Positions 3,001 through 40,100 of a DNA stretch of 64,000 nt are shown here, piece by piece; the stretch's first letter is position 1, and every line of letters starts with the position of its first letter. Location: assembly GCA_000004695.1 (NCBI GenBank), contig CM000153.2:1216001-1280000 (forward strand), written 5' to 3'. Made by a program: the position numbers and the translations under genes. This DNA comes from Dictyostelium discoideum (lineage: Eukaryota). The notes beneath the pieces were generated by a model. It saw nothing but the letters and a program-made list of their open reading frames with translations, did no database searches and had not been told where the DNA came from.

Positions 3001-6000
3001 CTTCATTATTAGTTGGTATTGATGTTGTTGATGGAGTAGTAGTTGTTGTTGTTGTTGTAGTATTAGTTGGAGTAATTGGTGATAATATATTATTACTTGA
3101 TGAATTTATAGATTTTGATGGTGAAGTTAAAGTATTATTTGGTGGTGGAATGAAATAAAGATCATAAAACTCGGGTAATCCAATCAAACCATCATTATTT
3201 ATAAAAGCAGATTTTTTAATTAATTTTTCAATTGTACCACTATAGTTTAGATTTACAATTGAAAGTTTATAAAATTCACCCACTTGGTAATTTGACTTTT
3301 TAAATGATAACAATTGACTATTGAATAATTTTGAGAGTATTGGATTCACAGTTTCAAAATTAAAGAGTATATAATTGAATACCATTAAACATCTTGAGAG
3401 CATTAAAGAGTTTGGAAGGAATGATTGATCAGATTTGACTTTACAAACGATTTCATTAAATGATTGACATAATGTTGAAACTATACCCAAACGATGTTTC
3501 TCATCCAAAGTATGGAAAGAGAATAAAAGTAATAAAATATAATCCAATGAAATCACCTCTTTGAATGGGGATGAAACCAATGAAACCTCTCTGATAACTC
3601 TTGAGGAATTCTTTAAAAAGCCATCCCAAAGGCTAACCACCATTACGCTATTGGTGGCACCAACGACCATTGTTGATTGTTTCTTTACAAATATCCAAGC
3701 TATCCAAGCCAATTGTTCCTTTGGAAGAGTTAAAAGTTGAGAATCAACAGAGGTGAATACAAACCCAATGAATTGATCCAACAATGTATCACTAATGATT
3801 GAATTTTTACATAAAAGGAAGCAAATATTTGTTAATAACTTAAAAACGGTTGAATTCTTTGATTTTGGTGCCATTATTGATGGATTACTAGATGGTGCTA
3901 TCAATGTGAACAATATTCTTAAATGAGTTAAAGTCAAGTGGTTCTTTGTAAACTCTTTATACATTGGATCATCTTGTAAGAGATAAATAAAGCTTAAAAG
4001 GTTAAATATTTTACATTTCATAATATCTTCATCATGATCACCATCATCATTAGATGATTCTTTAATATTTGAATTTGCTGGAGTACTAATGATAGTTGCA
4101 TTTGTTGTTGTTGTTGTAGTTGAGGATTTTGGTGTTCCTTCATTAACTTTATTACTACTACTTCTAATTGAAGTACTTGATTGATCAAATAATCCTCCAA
4201 ATAAATCATCTTCTCCAAAATAGGAATCATTAATTTTAATTGGTGGTGATTTTTTACTATTGCTTTTACTATCATTATTATTATTATTATTATTTACAAT
4301 TGGAATAGGTGTTGATGATCGAGTTGTTTCCATTGGTATGGATTCATTTGTTGTTGTTGTAGTTGTTGTTGTTGTTGCTGTTGTTGTGGTTGTGGTTGAT
4401 TTCGTTGGTTTAAAATAACATAAATATAAAATATTGAATAAAGTATCGAGTAATTGTGGTTTAATAAATAATTTAAATAAAGAATCTTTTGAAAATAATT
4501 GTTTGTTTTCATTTGAAAAATCAAACCAACCCTCAACACCAGTTCCATCCAATGGTTCTGATAATAAAAATTTAGTGGTTGGTTTTTCAACACCTGTAAT
4601 AGTACTCTGATCAACAGTTGAATCAATTTTTAACAATTCATTAAAATCTACATTGTTGTTGTTGTTGTTATTATTTTGAATCTCTGTAATTTCTCTAATA
4701 TTTTTGAATACCAAGTCAATTGCTAAAATAATCAATTGTGGGTTCAAAACTAAATACTCTTTATCCAATGGTGTTGATTGATCTCTTTCTAAAAGTTTGA
4801 CAATGTCAATTTTCATTTTATTTACATCTGATAAAATACATAATGAAAAGAATATCTCTGCTTTAATTTGTAAACCTGGATAATCTAATTTACTACCTAA
4901 AACTTCAAATATATTTTCAAATAACTATTAAAAAAAATTAAAAATAAAATTGTAATTAATATTTTTTTTTTTTGTTTTTGTTTTGATTTTGATTTTGTTT
5001 TAAAAAAAAAAAAAAAAAATACAAACATGTTTTGATAAAAATTTAGAATCATTATTATAATAAGATAAATTATTTGAAATTGAAAAAGATTGGAAAGATC
5101 TAAGAGTTCCAATTAAATTTCCCAAGAAATCAATGGTCCAAGGTGCAGTTTGTTTATCTAATGAATCAAATCCTTCAGAGAATATAATATCTTGAACATT
5201 GCTCATAAAATCTTGAATCAAAGTTTGATTCTTTTTGAATGTTTCAAACTTTTCAACAGTAGATGGTGATGTTAAATCTGCATGATAGGGTACCAAAAGT
5301 TTAGAACAAATTGATAACAATCTTGAAGATCCAAATAATTTATTATTGAAATAATTTGAATTAACTTTGGCGAATGTTTCCATTCCTCCTTCACCATTAC
5401 CACAATTACTATATGATTCTGGTTGTGTGATTGTTGATGATGGTAGTGGTTGTGTTGTTATTGTTGATGTTGGAGTTGGTGGTGGTGGTGGTAATGTGGA
5501 TGGTTTAAATGATGGTATCATTGTTTCATTTAAGCCTTCTACTTTTAATCCTTCATTTAAAAATTGACTAAAGATATTACTATTAGAAGTAGAAGTTGTT
5601 GTTGTTGTTGCTATTGTTGGCTTCTCTATATTTGTTGTGGTAATAGGTATTGGTGAAGAAGCGATTGGTTTTGAAGATTCTTTATCCTCTTTTTTGTTCT
5701 CTTTGTTGTCTTGGTTATTTGAGTCTAATATCTCATCTAATTCAGAAACATTTAAAAAAGAAGGTATGTTATCAAAGGTTTTATCAATTTCAGTTGATGG
5801 AAATTCAATACAACATAACATATCAATAACTGATAATAATGTTAGAGGTGTTAATTTCTTACTATTATTACTTTGATTATTGTCGTCTGTTTTATTATTG
5901 CTATTATTATCATTATTATTATTATTATTAATATTTGGAATGGTTGATAAATCAATATCACCATTTCCCCATTTCTCTAAAATGTTTAAACAAAATTCAA

Positions 6001-6175
6001 TTGTATCTTTACAAAATATTTCGAATTCATTTTCAACTATAATAAAATTAATAATAAAAAAATAGGTTAGCAAAATATAAAAATTAAAAATCTCCAAAAA
6101 AAAAAAAAAAAAAAAAATATGTTTTTGTTATTTTTTTAAAAAATTTGTGGAAATTAACTTTTTTTTGGAAGAAAG

Positions 6176-6231
<56 letters not shown>

Positions 6232-6335
6232 TGAGCTGAACTGAATTGAATTGAGAAAATATTGAGATAAAAACGATTTATTATTGATGATGAGAGATAG
6301 AATTGAGATTGAAAATATGAGAATAAAAAGATAAC

Positions 6336-6366
<31 letters not shown>

Positions 6367-6609
6367 AACAACAAATAATTGATAATTACCTTTATCTTTT
6401 TCTTTACCATTAAAAACTATATTGAAGGAAATTGATTCCAATATTTTTGAAAGGAAATAGATTTGATCCAATAACAATTCCTTTGATTTTAATAAGGCGA
6501 GAAGAGGCTTTAAATTTTTAACTATTGTATCTTTTTTCAATAAACCAGTTAATTCTTTAAAATATGTACTAATTTTATCTTCTGGTGGTTGTTTTTCTGC
6601 TTCTCCCAT
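1..6609 (-). CDS. UBR4/BIG/calossin-like giant E3 ubiquitin ligase (N-recognin 4), N-terminal ~2000 aa. The gene runs off the window start. Exons (minus strand): 6390..6609, 5027..6036, <1..4924.
   Basis: Start MGEAEKQPPEDK at 6609. Intron 1 has donor GTAATT at 6389 and acceptor ..TTATAG at 6037; intron 2 has donor GTTTGT at 5026 and acceptor ..TAATAG at 4925. Both preserve frame. The third exon is one uninterrupted frame of ~1640 codons down to nt 1. It ends in a textbook UBR box (approx 1..195): VCTYTFTKNDYIDQHWYFCYTCGLKFSEGCCSVCVKVCHKGHQVSYSRYSRFFCDCGAG, which matches the UBR4-type zf-UBR motif. Upstream are His-rich and acidic low-complexity stretches typical of Dictyostelium. The track ORF 5000..6097 is exon 2 plus intron read-through. 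Confidence 0.85.
6172..6225. repeat. Poly(A) homopolymer (~50 nt) inside intron 1 of the UBR4-like gene. Further A/T runs at 6343..6363 and 7022..7122.
   Basis: Direct reading of the sequence. Confidence 0.9.
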
Positions 6610-6673
6610 TTCTACATTTTTATTATTATTATTATTACTATTATTGTTATTATTATTGTTATTATTGTTGTTA

Positions 6674-6705
<32 letters not shown>

Positions 6706-6996
6706 GTTATTGTTATTATTATCCTATTTTTGAAAAAAAAATAATAAAAAAGTAAAAGAAAAAAAAAAATTGTATAAAAATATAATAAAAAAAAAATAAA
6801 ATAAAATAAAATAAAATAAAAAAAAAAAAAAGGGTTAGATGAATAATCTTTTTTTAAATGAATAAAATTAAAGAATGAAAATAATACATACCATTAAACT
6901 TTCACTTAATGCAATTGCTAATAAAAGATCAGGGTCCATTATGTGATTTTTTTCAACAAATAATGGAATTGTGTGTTTTTAATTAAATAAGAAAAA

Positions 6997-8270: not shown

Positions 8271-8604
8271 AAAAAAAAAATTGAAAAAAAAAAAAAAAAA
8301 TAAATGATCTGACCCAAACCAACTAACAGTGAATAAAGGGGAATTTAATATGAAAATTGGTTATTAATATAAATCATTAATATTTTTTTGAAAATCAATT
8401 TTAAGTTCAATTAATTAACAAAAAAATAAAAAAATAAATGTATACACTTTTTTTTTTATTTTTTTAATATCATGGTTTTATCCTTACAAAAAAATTTCTT
8501 TTTATATATATTTTTCCAGTTTTGTTTTTTTTTTTTTTTTTTTATCTAAAAAACATTGTTTTTTAATATATCTAAATATGGAAAATTAAATATTACCCCA
8601 CCCC

Positions 8605-8639
<35 letters not shown>

Positions 8640-9062
8640 AATTGGTAATCCCCTTTGTTTTTCCCACCAACCAATTATTCTTTTTTTTTTTTTTTCCAAA
8701 TAACTTTTTTTAAGAATTGTTTTTTCCTAAATTTTATTAAAATAAATGTAATAAATAATTTTTTAAAATTTTTAAAATAAATAAAAAAAAAACCATTTCA
8801 ATTTATCATAAAGATTCAACAACCGATCTATTGCAAAGACTAACCACTGGGATTATGAGAATCACCCTATGATTTTACTGAATATGGAAAAACTGGGCAA
8901 TAAAAGCATGTGTTCCAGAATTTCAAAATATTAAATAGAAAAATCGACTACAAACCAATTTATTTATTTATTAATACCTTCATAAACCCGCAACTAAACA
9001 CATCCATTTATAAAATTTCTTTTTTTTTATATTAGGGATGATTATTAATTTTAGGATTACTT

Positions 9063-32574: not shown

Positions 32575-35382
32575 ATGGCCTCTTTAATTGGAAGTGCTAA
32601 ATTACCTTTTAATGTAAGTTTTTTTTTTTTTTTTATTTGAAAGCAAAAAAAAAGAATTCTAATTTTTTTTATTTTTATTTTTTTATAATAGAATGAAGTT
32701 GAATTAATATCAGATGAAATTGAAAAAGGATTAAATGATTCAACAACAATTAGAAAATTTTTTGAAAAAAGGGCACAAATAGAGGAAGAATATGCAAAGA
32801 ATTTACAAAAATTATGTAAAGCTACACCAATTTTATTGAAATCAGGAGGTACATCAGATGCATTTTCAATGATAGTAGAGAGTACTAATCAATTTTCAAA
32901 TCATACAATATCAACAATTCAAAGATTTAATCAAGATGTTAATGATCCATTAGCAGGGTTTATAAAAGATCTTAGAGGAGAGTTAAAACAATACTCTTTG
33001 GAAGGTCAAAATTTAGCAAAAGAGAGGAAACAGGCATTCGATTCATTGAAATCCTCGAAAGCATTGTATGAACAAATGTGTAATAATCCTGAATCTGATG
33101 TAATGAAAGTTCAACAATCCGAAGAGGAATATAAACTTCAAGTACAAGCATGTAATCAATATCATTCACTCTATCATCAAGAAAAGTTACCAAAGATTCA
33201 AAATGAAATCATTAGATTAGAAACTGTTAGAATGCAAAAAATGAAAACAAATCTAAAGAAATACATTACAGAATTTGAAAGTATACCACAAAAACAACAA
33301 CAATCAATTAAAGATTCTGAAGAATTAATAAATTCAATTGATACAAAACAAGATATTCAATCTTTTACAAACTTTAATAAAACTTTAAATACACCAACTC
33401 CAGATTTTCAATTTGAATCATGTGAATCAATTAATGGTGGTGGCGGTGGTGCTGCTGGTAGAAAATCAAAAAAGGGTGGTTGGAGACAAACCATTTCTGT
33501 ATTAAAAATTGGTAATGCTTTTATGAAAGATGATGGCACAATTGTTAATGGTAATTCTTCTTTAAATTCAAGTAGCAGTAATATAAATATTTTAAATAAT
33601 CCTATAGTTTTTAAAATACCAATTGAAGAGATTATGTTTAAACAAAAGTCAAAATTCCCAAATTTAGATATACCTTATATATTGGTATTATTGGTTAATC
33701 TTATAAAGAAATTAGATAATGGTATGGGTATGAAAACTGAAGGTATCTTTAGAATTCCTGGTCATACTAGTGAAGTGAATGCTTTGAAAAAGTTAATTAA
33801 TGAACAAGGTGAATATCAATTCCCACCTGACCTATACTCAATTCATCCAATTGCTTCACTTTTAAAACTTTGGTTACGTGAAATGCCTCAACCATTAATT
33901 CCAAATTACGTTTATGATAAATCATTAGAATGTCAATCAATAGAAGAGTTTATAGTTTTTTTCAAATTTTTACCAGCTTCAAATCAAAAGATTATCACTT
34001 ATTTAGCAGGTTTCTTAAATGAATTGGTTCAGCCAGATAATGTAGTCACTAGTAAAATGAATTTAGATAATGTTGCTATGGTTTTCGCTCCTTCTTTCTT
34101 AAGATGTGATAGTCAAGATATGATTTTAGCAAATGTAGATAGAGAGAAAACTTTAGTTAAATTAATAATTGAAGGTTATTTAAAATTATCTGATGTTTGT
34201 CCAATACAATTGGATGATATTGATTCAAAAATTCAAATTCCATCATTTAGTAATAATAATAATAATTCTACAACAACAACTACAACAACTACAACTACAA
34301 CAGTACCATCATCAACTTCAACAAATATAACAACTAATGGTGCCTCGGCACTAGGTGCTGAAAGTTCAACAACACCTTTACCATCATTAACAACTTTTTC
34401 ACAATCACAATCTAGTTCACCACCAAATCAACCATCACCATCTATAACTCCACAACAAGTTTCAAATTTACCACCATCATATCAACCACCACAACCACCA
34501 CCGACCATGGCACCACCACCATTATTTAATATTCCACAACAACAACAACAGCAACAAGTAACAAATAACAACAACAGTGGAGGTTATACACCACCACCAT
34601 TACAATATACCCAATCTTCTTCAAATTTACCACCAATTCAATTAGGTGTAACTAATTCACCTTCAAAACCACAATTATCAGATAAACAAAAGGAAAAAGA
34701 AAAAGAAAAAGAAAAAGAAAAAGAAAAAGAAAAGGAAAGAGAAAAAGAAAAAGAAAAAGAAAAAGAAAAAGAAAAAGAAAAGGAAAAAGAAAAAGAAAAG
34801 AAGGGACATAAAAAGTCATCATCATCAACATCACCAAATTCTTCCAGTTTATCAATTTCAAACTTTTTATCAAGTAACAAGGATAAGGATAAAGAAAAAG
34901 ATAAAGAAAAAGAAAAAGAAAAAGAAAAAGAAAAAGATAAAGAAATATTAGCGACTAATTCAACACCAGAAAAACCAGTTTCAAATCGTATGTCATTAAT
35001 ATTTAGTCAACAATTACAACAACAATTACAGCAACAGATTCAACAACATCAACAATTACAACAACAAAGTAATGGGTCACCAACATCACCAATTTCACCT
35101 TCATCTGCAAATAATTCACCATCAATGTCGCCAAGTATGGTGAAAAGAACAATTCGCCCAAATTTACCACCACTTCAATCTGGTACATCTGCCACAACTT
35201 CATCTTCTTCTTTAACTTCATCATCTTCACCAACTCTCACATCTTCAAAAGACAATATTCAAAAACAACAATTACCTGAACTAAACCAACAACAACAACA
35301 ACAATCACCTCAAGCCGAACTTAAATCATCAGGTATTAAAAGCTTATTACAAAGAGTCCCTCCACCACCATCACAAAGTTAA
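32575..35382 (+). CDS. F-BAR (FCH) + RhoGAP domain protein of the MEGAP/srGAP-like family (~909 aa), 2 exons: 32575..32613 and 32692..35382.
   Basis: Exon 1 is MASLIGSAKLPFN|GTAAGT. Acceptor ATAATAG at 32691. FCH/F-BAR region: IRKFFEKRAQIEEEYAKNLQKLCK…coiled coil. RhoGAP region: GIFRIPGHTSEVNALKKL…LLKLWLREMPQPLIP…MVFAPSFLR (arginine finger and conserved core). The C-terminus has a (KE)n-encoding (GAAAAA)n microsatellite and polyQ/S/T/P tracts. Confidence 0.85.
34684..34940 (+). repeat. Coding (GAAAAA)n / (GAAAAAGATAAA) microsatellite encoding a (KE)n / KDKEKE tract inside the MEGAP-like gene
   Basis: aaagaaaaagaaaaagaaaaag… in frame (KEKEKEKE…). Confidence 0.85.
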
Positions 35383-35477
35383 GAAAAAAAATAAAAACAA
35401 AACCAAAAACTATGTATCACTATAAAAAAAAAAAAACAAAACATATATCATATAAGTGTTAAACACTCATCATAAAA

Positions 35478-35638
35478 AATATATATATATATAGATCCCT
35501 CCACACAACTCAATATAGAAAAAAAAAAAAAGAAAAAAATTATATATAATAAAGGTTAAATTTTTTATACCTCTTTTTTTTATTTTTTATTTTTGTAAAA
35601 TAATAATTATCAATTTTTATTTTTGTATTTCCAAAAAC

Positions 35639-35675
<37 letters not shown>

Positions 35676-35830
35676 CAAATAATTCCCGAGCAATCAATAG
35701 TCATTCTTTGATCAACTTGTAATAGTAGCAATACCATTCATCTGCAAATTAATGATTTATCATAATTCTTCTACTGGCAATACTATAATCCCATTCCATT
35801 GGTTTTTTGAATAGGTAACTATTTATTTTT
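35478..35830. repeat. Segmental duplicate (~85% identity) of 36997..37340, which is the 3' exon plus 3' flank of the phosphatase gene
   Basis: Shared strings include ccctccacacaac…ataaaggttaaattt.ttatacctcttttttt.attttttatttttgtaaaataataattatc and gcaatcaatagtcatt…gcaataccatt…ctgcaaatt.atgatttatcataattcttctac.tgcaatactataatcccattccattg. Confidence 0.8.
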
Positions 35831-36480
35831 TATTGTTGTTTTTTTCTTTGAAAAAGAAAAAAAAAAAATTATTATCAAATTAGTTTATATTGGTTTTATA
35901 AAAGAATATTTTAAAATAAAAATAATAAAAAAATAATACAAGAATCAAACCAAGATCATAGAGAAACCTAATTTCTATCCATTATTTTTTTTACTAATTG
36001 AATTATCATTAAAAGTTTTTGAATCACCAAGATCATAAAATATGTTGTTAGTGTTTAAATTTACAATACCAGTATAAATAGTTTTATTAACTTCATTACC
36101 AATTTTATCACCAGTATAAATAATTTGATCTCCATAATTTAAAAAAGAACTAATTTTTTCTTTTATATTTGTCACCAGGGGTTGATTTGGATTTTTGTTA
36201 AAATTGGTGTTGATATTGTGGTGGTTGTTGGTTTTAACTACATAGTATTAAAAAAATTAAATTGACCAGTAGATGAATTACAACCATTTGAAAAATAATC
36301 CCAATTTTTTTTTTTTGTTTTATTGGGGTTGGTTTTTGGTGGAGGTAGGAATGGAAGAAGTGGAGGATAATCACTTAGATTTGTATTATCCTTAAATCTA
36401 ATTTCACCAATAGATGTACCAAAGTTTTCCTTCAATGAAACTGATCCATCATCTTTAATATTTGATTCTTCAATTTTATT
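35650..36480 (-). pseudogene. Decayed paralogue of the downstream PTP-like phosphatase gene. It keeps a fragment resembling the middle of exon 1 (36238..36480) and a 3'-exon copy (35680..35830) with frameshifts. The catalytic HCx5R region is lost.
   Basis: 35478..35830 aligns at ~85% identity with 36997..37340, which is the 3' exon plus 3' flank of the intact gene, but has 1-nt indels and a different stop context. 36238..36435 translates to KENFGTSIGEIRFKDNTNLSDYPPLLPFLPP, resembling ANPQFGEFGTNVTLGDLWDPNFLPE of the intact gene, and is bounded by stops. Track ORFs 35975..36175 and 36238..36435 are its broken frames. Confidence 0.55.
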
Positions 36481-37141
36481 TAATTTTTAATTCTACCATT
36501 ATAAAATAAAAGTAAAAAAATTCAAAATAAAATTAATATTTAAATAAAATATTAATTTTTAATTTTTTTTATTTGTTATGAAAAATAATAATTTAAATCT
36601 TACCATTTTTTAATAATACAAGAATAGTTATTTCTTGATATATTGTTTAATAATTTAAATATAATGAATTTTTCATCTTTTATAGATTTTTATAACAAGT
36701 GTCTAAGAAATATAATCACATTTTATTTAGAATTTTTTTTTTTTTATTTTTTATTTTTATTTTTTTTATTTTTAAAATAAATAATAAAAAAAATAATTTT
36801 TTATTTTAAAATTTAAAATTATGTCAAATTAATAACCAAACAAAAAACAAAAAAAAAAAATATAAAATAAAAATGTTTATTAGAATCAACTGGTAATTCT
36901 GATTTGTGACCAAAAATTAATTTAATATTAAAAATTTCAAATGTGTCTGAGAATTTAACATTTAAACTTGCCGAATTTTTATTAAACAGTTTATTAATTC
37001 ACCATAGACCCTCCACACAACTTAAATAGGAAAAAAAAAATTATATTTAATAAAGGTTAAATTTGTTATACCTCTTTTTTTATTTTTTATTTTTGTAAAA
37101 TAATAATTATCTTTAATTTTTATTTTTAAAAATTTCTTTTT

Positions 37142-37377
37142 TTATTCAAATAAAGGTGGTGCTGAGCAATCAATAGTCATTCCTTCAGCAACTTGTAAAT
37201 AGTAGCAATACCATTGAGCTGCAAATTGATGATTTATCATAATTCTTCTACCTGCAATACTATAATCCCATTCCATTGCTTCTTTAAATGAATAACCTAA
37301 ATATTTCATGGCATATGAAGCAAATACCTCTCCAGTTCTATCACAACCACATTCACTATTTATTTATTATTATTAAT

Positions 37378-37408
<31 letters not shown>

Positions 37409-37413
37409 AATTA

Positions 37414-37444
<31 letters not shown>

Positions 37445-38007
37445 AATTATTAAATAAATATTTTTACATACCAATGAATATATAAAACTAAAGGTAAATC
37501 ATTTTCAGAATTTAAAATATTACGGTAGAATGGGATTCTATATGGTAAATTGTCATGTTGCCAGTCTGATAAATTTAAAGCCCAACTTTTAACATCATGT
37601 TCAGGTAAAAAGTTTGGATCCCAAAGATCGCCCAAAGTAACATTTGTACCAAATTCACCAAATTGTGGATTTGCATTAAAGAAAGTTTGCTCCAATTCAA
37701 TATCTGACTCTTCATCTTTTAATCCATAGATAAGTTTGATATCGACAATAATAAATTGAGGTGGTAATTTGACACCTGTTGTTAATGAATTGTTTACCAT
37801 ACATTTTATTAATTCTTCATATGCAAAGTAATTTTCACCATTAACTAATATTTTTGGCTCGTTACCTCTGAAGATATAATTTGTATTTCCATTTGATAAT
37901 GAAACTTGGTCAACTAAATGAACCTTTTTATATTCTAAATAATCACCATTAATTAAAACTATGGAAATTGATAATATTAAAATTATCAAATTTAAAATTA
38001 TTTTCAT
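37142..38007 (-). CDS. Secreted protein-tyrosine-phosphatase-like protein (Y_phosphatase3/PTP-like family, HCx5R active site), 2 exons: 37472..38007 and 37142..37355. 249 aa.
   Basis: N-terminal signal peptide MKIILNLIILILSISIVLING. Exon 1 ends ..LVLYIH + TG, then GTATGT at 37471 (phase 2). Acceptor AAATAG|T at 37356 gives the Cys codon TGT. The active site reads IHCECGCDRTGEVFASYAM, followed by WDYSIAG, matching the DY.S motif of bacterial/plant PTP-like enzymes. The unspliced track ORF 37450..38007 reads through into the intron. Confidence 0.8.
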
Positions 38008-38495: not shown

Positions 38496-40100
38496 TTAAA
38501 ACACATACTCTAAGAATGTTTTCCCTCTATCTTCTAAAGATTTTGGAACATAGTCCTTTTCATCTTCATCATTCTTTGATTTTTTTAATCTTTCTTCCTC
38601 TCTTTGTAAACCACTTTGTTTCATTTCTTCAATTCTTTTTCTTTTTTCTTCTTCACTTAAACCACCATTTGATGGACGATTTTCATAATCATTTCTATCT
38701 CTTTTTTTATTTGGAGAATCATTATGATCTCTATCCCTGTATCTTGAGTCTTCTCTTTTTTTATCAATATGATGATCTTTTTCATCTCTTCTATTTCTAT
38801 CATAATATCTATCGGAATGGTCTCTATCTCTGTATCTATCATCTCTTCTCTCTTGATGATGATGATGATGATGATGATAGGTATCTCTATCTTTATCATC
38901 TCTTCTATCTCTATCATCTCTTCTGTCTCTATCCCTATCATAATGATGATCTCTATTTCTTTCTCTATCCCTATCATCTCTTCTTTCTCTTTCATCTCTT
39001 CTGTCTCTATCCCTATCTCTATCCCTATCTCTATCATCTCTTCTATCATAATGACTATCCCTATTTCTTTCTCTATCTCTATCTCTGTCATCTCTTCTTT
39101 CTCTTTCCTTTTCTTTTTCACTATCTCTATTTCTGTCATCCCTTCTATCGGAATGATCTCTATCCCTATATCTATCATCTCTTCTTTCATCATCAACACG
39201 ACCACCATTATCATTATAATTTTTAGGTTTTTCTGTGTGACCATTTGAGTTTTGAATTTTTTCATTATTTTTATCTTTATCTTTATATTTATCTTTTTTC
39301 TTTTCAGTTTTTTCTTTATCATTTTCACTATCATTATTATCATCATCATCATCATCATCATCGTCACTACTGTAATTTTTATCTTTTTTCTTTTCTTTCT
39401 TTTCTTTCTTTTCTTTCTTTTCTTTTTTCTCTTTTTTTTCATTTTTTTCTTTTTTTTTTAATTTCTTTAAAATTTTATCAGATTCTTTTTTCTCTTTTTC
39501 AAGTTTTTTCATTTGTAAGGGATTATTCATAATTTTATCAAGTGCTTCTTGTTTCTTTCTTTCAATTATCATTAATGGGTCTTCTCTAACGAGGCTTTTA
39601 ATATCTTGAGGGTTATCATTACTATTTGAATGAAGAAATAATGCACCAGGTAATTGAGCCGCTTTCTTTATAATATCTTCTGCTGAATCATCTATTTTCT
39701 TACCTAATAAATAATCATCAACTGTTTCTGTTTTTTTCATTGATAATTGAAATGCACCTTCATACATCCAATCCATTTTATTATCTGGTTTTCTATAAAA
39801 ATAAAAATAAAAATAAAAATAAAATAATAAAATATAATAAAATAAAAAAAAGAGAGTTGGTATTTTAATAGTTTTATTAATTTTAATTTTTTTTCAATTT
39901 ATTTCTCACACATACTTGCCTGAAGCTTCATTAAATTGATTTTTTAAGTCCCTTATTTGCTCTTCTTCTCTCATTTCTTTTTTTAATTGATCTATTTTCT
40001 TTTGTTCATCTTCTTTTTCTTTTTCAGCTTTCCATATCCTTTCTTGATTTTTCATAGTAGAGACATGCCAACTCTTTTTTGAAAGAAATGATTTACTCAT
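38496..40100 (-). CDS. Pre-mRNA splicing factor CWC25 homologue (Cir_N domain; ~493 aa), 2 exons: 39916..40100 and 38496..39792.
   Basis: Exon 1 is MSKSFLSKKSWHVSTMKNQERIWKAEKE… (Cir_N: KSWHP..N.E.VW.AE), donor GTATGT at 39915. Acceptor TTTTATAG at 39793, phase 2. Exon 2 reads KKPDNKMDWMYEGAF…YLLGKKIDD…REDPLMIIERKKQEALDKIMNNPLQMKKL, matching human CWC25 blocks DWMYQG / EYLLGR.ID / REDPLFIIRKKEEE…NNPVKMKKI. A long RD/RE/RS-like dipeptide-repeat tail follows. Confidence 0.85.

Follow-up and report, generated by a model that had tools for sequence, protein, structure and literature searches.

In the 64,000-nt stretch of Dictyostelium discoideum DNA analysed here (the window), a predicted phosphatase gene on the minus strand is followed by sequences that resemble parts of it, and the locus raises the question of how these copies arose, whether they have any function, and what the intact gene encodes. 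The initial annotation placed this gene at 37142..38007 on the minus strand, with a phase-2 splice that divides the catalytic Cys codon, and reconstruction of the splice bore this out. Exon 1 (38007..37472) and exon 2 (37355..37142, with the stop codon at 37144..37142) are separated by a 116-nt phase-2 intron (37471..37356, GTATGT..ATAG, 3.4% G+C) that splits the Cys179 codon as TG and T and interrupts the P-loop codons H178-C179-E-C-G-C-D-R185-T186 (37334..37476, minus strand). Left unspliced, the ORF reads ...IHWYVKIFI and then meets a stop, in broad agreement with the HW and stop that had been described for the naive ORF. When correctly spliced it reads ...LYIHCECGCDRTGE... at the Cys codon and encodes 249 aa, and the expected PTP loop, HCECGCDRT, becomes visible, as it does only after splicing. 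The spliced product is identical to XP_638918.1 (DDB_G0283851, Q54QF3) of D. discoideum AX4; 38007..37142 is an already annotated gene, present as a functional single copy. The orthologues of D. citrinum and D. firmibasis have the same two-exon structure, and an intron-less contig (L009/P0003), whose ORF translates directly and which is probably transcript-derived, carries the uninterrupted IHCECGCDRTGE. A literature search for DDB_G0283851 or Q54QF3 retrieved no paper.

We then analyzed the region between this gene and the convergent RhoGAP gene, in which a RhoGAP domain was identified and whose stop lies at 35382. The 3' part of exon 2 and the 3' flank recur at 35829..35491, in a copy that matches 37297..37004 (blastn E 9e-79, family HMM E 1.4e-14, tblastn E 1e-13). 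Outside gaps, the coding part was 92% and the flank 96% identical, and identity fell to ~80% when gap columns were counted. The exon-2 relic (B2; 35671..35829, minus strand, residues ~197-249) begins downstream of the P-loop codons and carries an in-frame CAA to TAA change (35751..35749), a 1-nt deletion (~35722) and a 3-nt deletion ahead of the old stop codon. The 3' flank repeat is present on the minus strand as copy F (37004..37141), which contains GAGGTATAACAAATTTAACCTTTATTA (37074..37048) and terminates in ...GTGTGGAGGGTCTAT, and as copy F' (35491..35670), which continues into the ancestral flank of the RhoGAP gene. The GAGGTATAACAAATTTAACCTTTATTA element occurs only twice in the window, where none is expected by chance, and D. 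citrinum and D. firmibasis have conserved it as well; a search of Rfam for a structured RNA in the conserved flank gave no match. A frameshifted downstream copy lacking the active site, as proposed earlier for 35478..35830, is thus real, but the range to which it had been matched (36997..37340) extends ~40 nt too far at its 5' end. B2 shares a GCA codon state with the intact copy and, judged from the D. discoideum-lineage states that it carries, it is young.

The remnant of exon 1 was less well placed. The initial annotation located a mid-exon-1 fragment at 36238..36480, but this similarity proved to be due to chance: its protein Smith-Waterman score (29) equals the shuffle mean and was reached by 469 of 1000 shuffles, its nucleotide score was reached by 29 of 300, and the family HMM found nothing there. 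The true exon-1 relic (B1) lies at 37006..36864 on the minus strand, where tblastn, HMM and Smith-Waterman alignment detected a frameshifted copy of residues ~62-110 that abuts the end of F, with the microhomology TATG at the join. B1 is ~60-70% identical to the intact exon and ~60% identical to every orthologue; its Smith-Waterman score was 82, against 26 +/- 4.4 for shuffles, and was reached by none of 1000, and its HMM i-E was 1.5e-5 with one sequence as the search space, or ~1e-4 over the six frames searched. The junction between F and mid-exon 1 is common to AX4, strain L004 and D. cf. discoideum L005. The age of B1 was assessed by counting diagnostic sites rather than from a tree, because long-branch attraction would bias the latter. 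B1 has the outgroup state at 5 of the 8 sites, and therefore appears to predate the ancestor of D. discoideum, D. citrinum and D. firmibasis, although the argument draws on ~140 nt, and 4 of these 5 matches are changes towards T that AT-biased decay could mimic. L005 contains a further exon-1 relic, and in this one the ingroup state is found at 7 of the 8 sites.

The two relics are separated by ~1 kb of AT-rich spacer (35830..36863, minus strand), which contains short ORFs (36435..36238 and 36175..35975). By HMM, shuffles and homologue searches, this spacer could be related neither to the phosphatase nor to another protein, and its sole database match is an ab initio 119-aa model at the same place. 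It is rearranged in strain L004 and missing from L005, and it shows indels and frameshifts between strains, with no sign of coding constraint. Three further origins were considered. As the missing middle of the gene, its best alignment involved an AT-rich, intron-like segment (36605..36476) and had a score that was reached by 8 of 200 shuffles, which is unconvincing; as a fragment of another gene, it gave no protein homologues; and as a repeat, it gave three short, low-complexity-like matches (60–116 nt, 70–87% identity), all within the window. Stricter blastn settings were used, as lax scoring produces noise in AT-rich DNA.

Taken together, we consider it likely that the locus consists of a functional phosphatase gene followed by non-functional relics of at least two layers of partial tandem duplication. 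The duplicated unit would begin midway through exon 1 and extend through the 3' flank to its end. The copies start inside exon 1 (residue ~58-62), directly at the end of the flank repeat, and therefore were without promoter and start codon from birth; nor would any of them ever have had the signal peptide. The relics contain neither codons 1-57 nor the promoter nor the P-loop, and they combine homology to the parent gene with the TAA codon and 1-nt deletion of B2 and the frameshift of B1. The region shows no purifying selection, being variable between strains and absent in sister species. By these sequence features the relics are duplication-derived pseudogene fragments that were dead on arrival. 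The old layer would be B1, with character states since lost by the functional gene, and the young layer the exon-2 and flank relic, with fast-evolving junk between them. The phosphatase and RhoGAP genes lie 1755 bp apart in an AX4-like assembly that matches the window at 99.8% identity, and 368, 303 and 331 bp apart in D. citrinum, D. firmibasis and D. purpureum, whose intergenic interval contains no relics. F and F' are direct repeats between which recombination can excise the insert, and this offers an explanation for its absence in the sister species; an old B1 would nevertheless imply that at least two or three lineages lost it independently. It is also awkward for two layers that the young copy lies distal to the old one and has almost the same 5' breakpoint.

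Other histories can be proposed for the same sequences. A single recent and complete tandem duplicate in decay, as first described, with exon-1 and exon-2 remnants at 36238..36480 and 35478..35830, would agree with the reality and youth of the exon-2/flank copy and with the expected order of the pieces. This is improbable: the segment 36238..36480 is no closer to exon 1 than shuffled sequence, the true exon-1 relic adjoins the end of F with no trace of the promoter or of codons 1-57, and the exon-1 and exon-2 relics differ ~fourfold in divergence and also in their diagnostic states. Hence, from the original proposal, a partial copy without active site and the young age of the exon-2/flank relic can be retained, but not one full duplicate, since the copies are 5'-truncated and of two ages, nor a recent origin for the exon-1 relic, which is much older at ~60% identity. 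More weight, though still well short of the layered history, is due to a single ancient partial tandem duplication in which gene conversion, with the functional copy as donor, subsequently renewed exon 2 and the flank. One junction suffices in this case, the F/F' repeats and the exon-2 homology are suitable conversion substrates, and F' continues into the ancestral downstream flank, as a tandem unit predicts. However, the L005 genome by itself contains both an old exon-1 relic (6103..6171) and a young one (8309..8476, ~91% identical to the intact exon), a pair that conversion of a single copy cannot yield.

It is very improbable that the downstream region is a real gene, encoding either the 119-aa product (ACTFIT_006587, window 36606..35760) or, through extra 3' exons, a long phosphatase isoform (the 302- and 291-aa models of other strains). 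These models were called by ab initio annotation pipelines, but no homologue of the 119-aa model was found anywhere, and it translates the exon-2 relic in the wrong frame. The 302- and 291-aa extensions come from two strains of a single species and are set apart by a frameshift, and both substitute other sequence for the conserved C-terminal end, Cys242 included; the region is, moreover, rich in indels when strains are compared, and sister species lack it. These three conflicting models, which appear in newer D. discoideum assemblies, are explained by the relics and are best regarded as artefacts. With the layered history as the preferred reading, the locus resembles known pseudogenes of the unprocessed, partial-duplication kind (5'-truncated tandem segmental duplicates) in its head-to-tail junction with microhomology inside the parent gene, its intron-era gene order, its stop and frameshift lesions, its lineage-specific presence and its rapid indel turnover, and differs from them in its two age layers with nearly the same 5' breakpoint and in a 3'-flank element 96% identical in both copies. 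Overall, the locus is an ordinary one of modest stakes, albeit with more layers than the first description gave it. It is a minor but datable case of recurrent partial duplication, with subsequent deletion between the direct repeats on either side, in a genome of extreme AT content.

The product of the intact gene was analyzed in turn. DDB_G0283851 carries the P-loop signature H-C-X5-R-(S/T), and the HCX5R loop claimed at the outset is conserved throughout the family, HCECGCDRT being one form of the consensus HC[ED]xGxDRT. H178, E180, G182, D184, R185, T186 and D152 were invariant or nearly so. D152 lies 27 residues upstream of Cys179 in a conserved W-Q-x-D-x-L motif, within the segment in which an HMM profile aligned the family motif WQxD to WEHD of Sdp1. 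The AlphaFold2 model (mean pLDDT 92.7) has the PTP/DSP alpha-beta fold, with the P-loop between the central strand and a helix, and the best sequence matches were DSPc and Sdp1. The Pfam DSPc match (PF00782) covered residues 174-230 only and, at 31.4 bits, was below the gathering threshold of 33.5; 17 of 19 relatives matched DSPc at E<=0.01. An assignment to Y_phosphatase3 (PF13350), as initially suggested, could not be sustained, as the product scored 15.8 bits (E 0.014) against a threshold of 22.2; weak matches to this model were seen in 7 of 19 family members, and PTP-like inositol phosphatases were not the closest structural neighbours. As modelled, the product would be a cysteine-based phosphatase with a DSP/PTEN-like fold. 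Cys179 would be the nucleophile by the standard CX5R mechanism, the phosphate would be bound by Arg185 and the P-loop backbone, and Asp152 would act as the general acid.

With the small DSP/PTEN-like Cys phosphatases of the DSPc clan (Tk-PTP, PTPMT1, DUSP14, DUSP23/VHZ, P. aeruginosa TpbA and yeast Sdp1) the product shares the HCX5R(T) P-loop and the upstream Asp in a WxxD context. It differs from DSPs in ~80 additional residues that form an N-terminal beta extension, in the family-specific FRGNEP motif, D-R-T-G-E loop and conserved C-terminal cysteines, and in its predicted signal peptide, most DSPs being proteins of the cytosol; TpbA, for its part, is exported to the periplasm. Y_phosphatase3 enzymes and PTP-like phytases share an HCxAGxDRTG-type P-loop (HCFAGKDRTG in M. 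tuberculosis PtpB, HCEAGVGRT in Selenomonas PhyA). Several of them are secreted, and they are larger, with extra lid or partial beta-barrel domains.

The signal-peptide-like N-terminus noted earlier was upheld. Codons 1-21 (37945..38007, minus strand) encode the predicted cleavable signal peptide MKIILNLIILILSISIVLING, which on inspection is hydrophobic and has an n-h-c pattern. In all orthologues the hydrophobic N-terminus, with small residues at -1/-3, immediately precedes the conserved mature start YLEY(K/R)KV, and a hydrophobic N-terminal segment was present in 131 of 146 family representatives. The protein would enter the secretory pathway via this ~21-residue peptide and, on sequence grounds, is probably secreted, although its features may also be compatible with a lumenal, lysosomal or membrane-anchored location. 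That it stays in the endomembrane system (ER, Golgi, lysosome or contractile vacuole), is type II anchored, or is an inert pseudophosphatase seems a lesser possibility: the N-terminal hydrophobic helix is the only such feature seen, and the literature search found no secretome evidence for DDB_G0283851, but the -1/-3 residues ahead of the mature start, a C-terminus that is not HDEL-type and a lipoprotein-type signal on a bacterial homologue argue against retention, and the catalytic residues, all intact and conserved, against an inert protein.

Secretion of such a protein by an amoeba had been thought unusual, yet signal-peptide-bearing orthologues were found throughout Dictyostelia and in Balamuthia, Physarum, Stygamoeba and choanoflagellates. 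The family search gave 1252 matches, 308 of them at E<1e-30, and the family comprises ~300 clusters at 50% identity, characterized by the N-terminal beta-extension, the motif FRGNEP and the loop HC(E/D)xGxDRTGE. It is an unnamed family, for which NCBIfam holds no model, with members in Amoebozoa, choanoflagellates and at least one bacterium, where one member lies in a clearly bacterial gene context. Only tentatively do we propose that DDB_G0283851 represents an uncharacterised, widespread, exported DSP-fold CX5R family outside the Pfam and NCBIfam models, whose physiological substrate, rather than phosphoproteins, might be a non-protein phosphoester outside the cell (such as inositol phosphates, polyphosphate, phosphoglycans or lipids). 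The intact gene offers, in a tractable model organism, an entry point to this conserved family of apparently exported cysteine phosphatases.

In the extremely AT-rich window (21% G+C), the unspliced ORF of the phosphatase gene DDB_G0283851 (38007..37142, minus strand) is 185 codons long and meets a stop eight codons past ...LYIH-W. Removal of the 116-nt intron at 37471..37356 (GTATGT...ATAG, 3.4% G+C) joins TG to T and generates a 249-codon in-frame CDS containing ...LYIHCECGCDRTGEVF.... The spliced product is identical at every residue to D. discoideum AX4 XP_638918.1 (EAL65540.1, UniProt Q54QF3), named 'hypothetical protein DDB_G0283851' in the database, so that the splice proposed in the initial annotation is exactly the existing one; the gene is already annotated, and it is not mentioned in any paper found. 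The D. citrinum and D. firmibasis orthologues likewise have two exons with the break at the P-loop, and IHCECGCDRTGE is uninterrupted in an intron-less contig with a directly translating ORF (L009/P0003), which is probably transcript-derived. Upstream lies a CWC25-like splicing factor gene with RD/RDR repeats (38496..39776, minus strand), and on the other side a convergent RhoGAP-domain gene (32836..35382, plus strand, ORF end at 35382) with long (EK)n and poly-Q/T tracts of low complexity. As listed, the RhoGAP ORF begins with TTG, and therefore its true 5′ end is probably in an upstream exon.

When the six frames of 35300..37141 were scanned with the family HMM, two fragments and no more were detected, i.e., one of exon 2 (35820..35701, HMM positions 200-239, E 1.4e-14) and one of exon 1 (36992..36888, HMM positions 69-103, E 1.5e-5). 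The exon-2 relic (B2, 35829..35671, minus strand) and the second copy of the 3′ flank that follows it (F′, 35670..35491) match 37297..37004, which includes the flank repeat beside the gene (F, 37141..37004), with a blastn E of 9e-79. With gaps left out, the coding part is 92% and the flank 96% identical, and the 28 gap columns were located in homopolymer runs. This second copy, which had been claimed before, is real. It starts downstream of the P-loop and is frameshifted; a CAA codon has become TAA at 35751..35749, one nucleotide is missing near 35722, and three more have been deleted ahead of the former stop codon. The exon-1 relic (B1, 37006..36864, minus strand) is newly found. With one frameshift corrected it translates to ELINCLIKNSASLNVKFSDTFEIFNIKLIFGHKSELP, its Smith-Waterman score against the protein was 82 (shuffles, 26 ± 4.4), and it adjoins the last bases of F (...GTGTGGAGGGTCTATG followed by GTGAATTAATAAAC) with the microhomology TATG. 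Most of the duplicate reported initially is thus correct and has firm statistical support, and one of the three pieces fails: the supposed exon-1 fragment at 36238..36480 scored exactly at the shuffle mean, and its only homologue was a 119-aa model predicted ab initio over the same stretch, in which the exon-2 relic is read out of frame.

In newer D. discoideum assemblies, conflicting ab initio models (P0048, P0043 and P0044) were placed over the relics (L001 7402..8248, equal to window 36606..35760, and L004 5001..6790). One is the 119-aa orphan; the others are phosphatase 'isoforms' (302 and 291 aa) with C-terminal extensions that differ between strains by a frameshift. Each of the three is probably an artefact of annotation.

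The order upstream gene/phosphatase/convergent RhoGAP is conserved in D. citrinum, D. firmibasis and D. purpureum, with intergenic distances between the last two genes of 368, 303 and 331 bp, respectively, and no relics were found in that interval. The distance is ~1.76 kb in an AX4-like assembly that matches the window at 99.8% identity, ~2.0 kb in a second D. discoideum strain and ~2.9 kb in D. cf. discoideum, and the F/exon-1 junction is identical in the three, with many indels otherwise. Window positions 35812..35302 form one aligned block with the outgroup exon 2, flank and RhoGAP end, the mark of a tandem duplication of a unit that began in the middle of exon 1 and finished where the 3′ flank ends. 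Such a copy lacked promoter, start codon and signal peptide from birth, so that instead of a decaying full tandem copy, as had been proposed, these are 5′-truncated partial duplications. The 2.9-kb region of D. cf. discoideum carries two exon-1 relics (L005 6103..6171 and 8309..8728). In the distal, young one, residues 58-114 run straight into the last 22 exon-2 codons, residues 115-225 having been deleted, and the 2.1 kb separating both relics had no match in the other loci compared.

Identity of B2 to the intact copy of AX4 is 92%, against 85-86% for D. citrinum and D. firmibasis, and B2 carries the D. discoideum-specific GCA state. It has one derived change in common with the D. cf. discoideum relic, in a ~45-nt alignment, and on this basis B2 appears older than the D. 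discoideum/D. cf. discoideum split. B1 is about 60% identical to each orthologue. Eight sites are diagnostic, in that D. discoideum, D. citrinum and D. firmibasis share one state and D. purpureum and a further dictyostelid do not; of these, B1 has the outgroup state at five, the ingroup state at one and another state at two; the young exon-1 relic of D. cf. discoideum, 91% identical to the intact exon, has the ingroup state at 7/8. At the protein level B1 has kept INC, SL and SELP, for which the functional genes in these three species have IKC/INC, TT/SA and EE(S/P). With a young B2 and an old B1, the partial copies therefore make up at least two layers, and not the single recent duplication first suggested. 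These layers could derive from two duplications, or from a single one combined with conversion and a secondary copy. If B1 is old, it must have been lost in the sister species, and such losses would be easy, as recombination between the direct repeats F and F′ would restore a single copy.

About 60-100 nt of the flank, TTATTTTACAAAAAT...GAGGTATAA[A/C]AAATTTAACCTTTATTA, are conserved in D. discoideum, D. citrinum and D. firmibasis (window 37048..37074 and 35547..35573, minus strand; L002 about 5990..6060; L003 about 5930..6000), and the AT-rich intergenic DNA outside this element is free to vary. The two duplicated copies are still 96% identical. After the duplication one is found behind the phosphatase gene and the other behind the convergent RhoGAP gene, so that the element, which had no match in Rfam, may be a common 3′-end or termination element.

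On the spliced product, Pfam gave sub-threshold matches only, DSPc with 31.4 bits (residues 174-230; cut-off, 33.5) and Y_phosphatase3, the family originally assigned, with 15.8 bits (cut-off, 22.2). Among relatives, DSPc matched in 17/19 and Y_phosphatase3 in 7/19, and NCBIfam has no model; the family is DSP-like and unnamed. In the comparison with known phosphatases the values were 13.0 for Tk-PTP, 12.7 for PTPMT1, 11.5-12.2 for DUSP14, STYX, Ci-VSP, DUSP23, TpbA, SsoPTP, KAP, PTEN, LSF2/SEX4 and Siw14, and about 8 for PTP-like phytases. The query-normalised Foldseek TM-scores were low (0.33-0.41) because only about 145 of the ~228 mature residues superpose, the rest being an N-terminal beta extension and inserts. 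Residues N43, F46, R47, G48, N49 and P51 are invariant and, with the nearly invariant E50, account for the motif FRGNEP; D152, H178, E180, G182, D184, R185, T186, G187, E188, C229 and C242 are also nearly invariant. Asp152 is likely the general acid, because the family W-Q-x-D was aligned to the WEHD segment of yeast Sdp1 in the profile search. The N-terminus, MKIILNLIILILSISIVLING followed by DYLEY, has the n-h-c layout of signal peptides, and all orthologues show a hydrophobic stretch, small -1/-3 residues and then at once the conserved YLEY(K/R)KV.

The profile search of 1.84 billion representatives yielded 1252 relatives; the 308 with E<1e-30 were mostly full length. A hydrophobic N-terminal segment was present in 131 of the 146 best-scoring members, and the P-loop is HC[ED]xGxDRT. 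Named members come from Dictyostelia, Balamuthia, Physarum, Stygamoeba and choanoflagellates, and one lipoprotein-like member lies between ValRS, LysR-type and SbcC genes on a clearly bacterial contig. A secreted amoebal protein of this type had been considered unusual; members are widespread in amoebae, and the protein is therefore a normal conserved part of amoebozoan genomes. The locus offers no mechanistic surprise, and the remaining interest is an uncharacterised, putatively exported phosphatase family.

A metagenomic relative (P0020) reads HYECGCDRTGE, with Tyr at the catalytic Cys position, and is either a natural pseudophosphatase or a gene model in which the conserved intron was mis-spliced. 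In Tieghemostelium lacteum two paralogues lie head to head (L007 4834..5769, minus strand, and 6001..6893, plus strand), and the P-loop intron is kept in one and absent from the other. In this species and in Cavenderia fasciculata (L008 3001..3920) an intron is located at HMM position about 58-60, the point at which both D. discoideum-group relics start (residues 58-62), an agreement that may be coincidental. The D. purpureum orthologue (L010 4001..4844) carries a frameshift (EQNIL* in frame), either an assembly error or the mark of a pseudogenised orthologue, with HMM matches in two frames, and its 203-aa gene model leaves out the P-loop.
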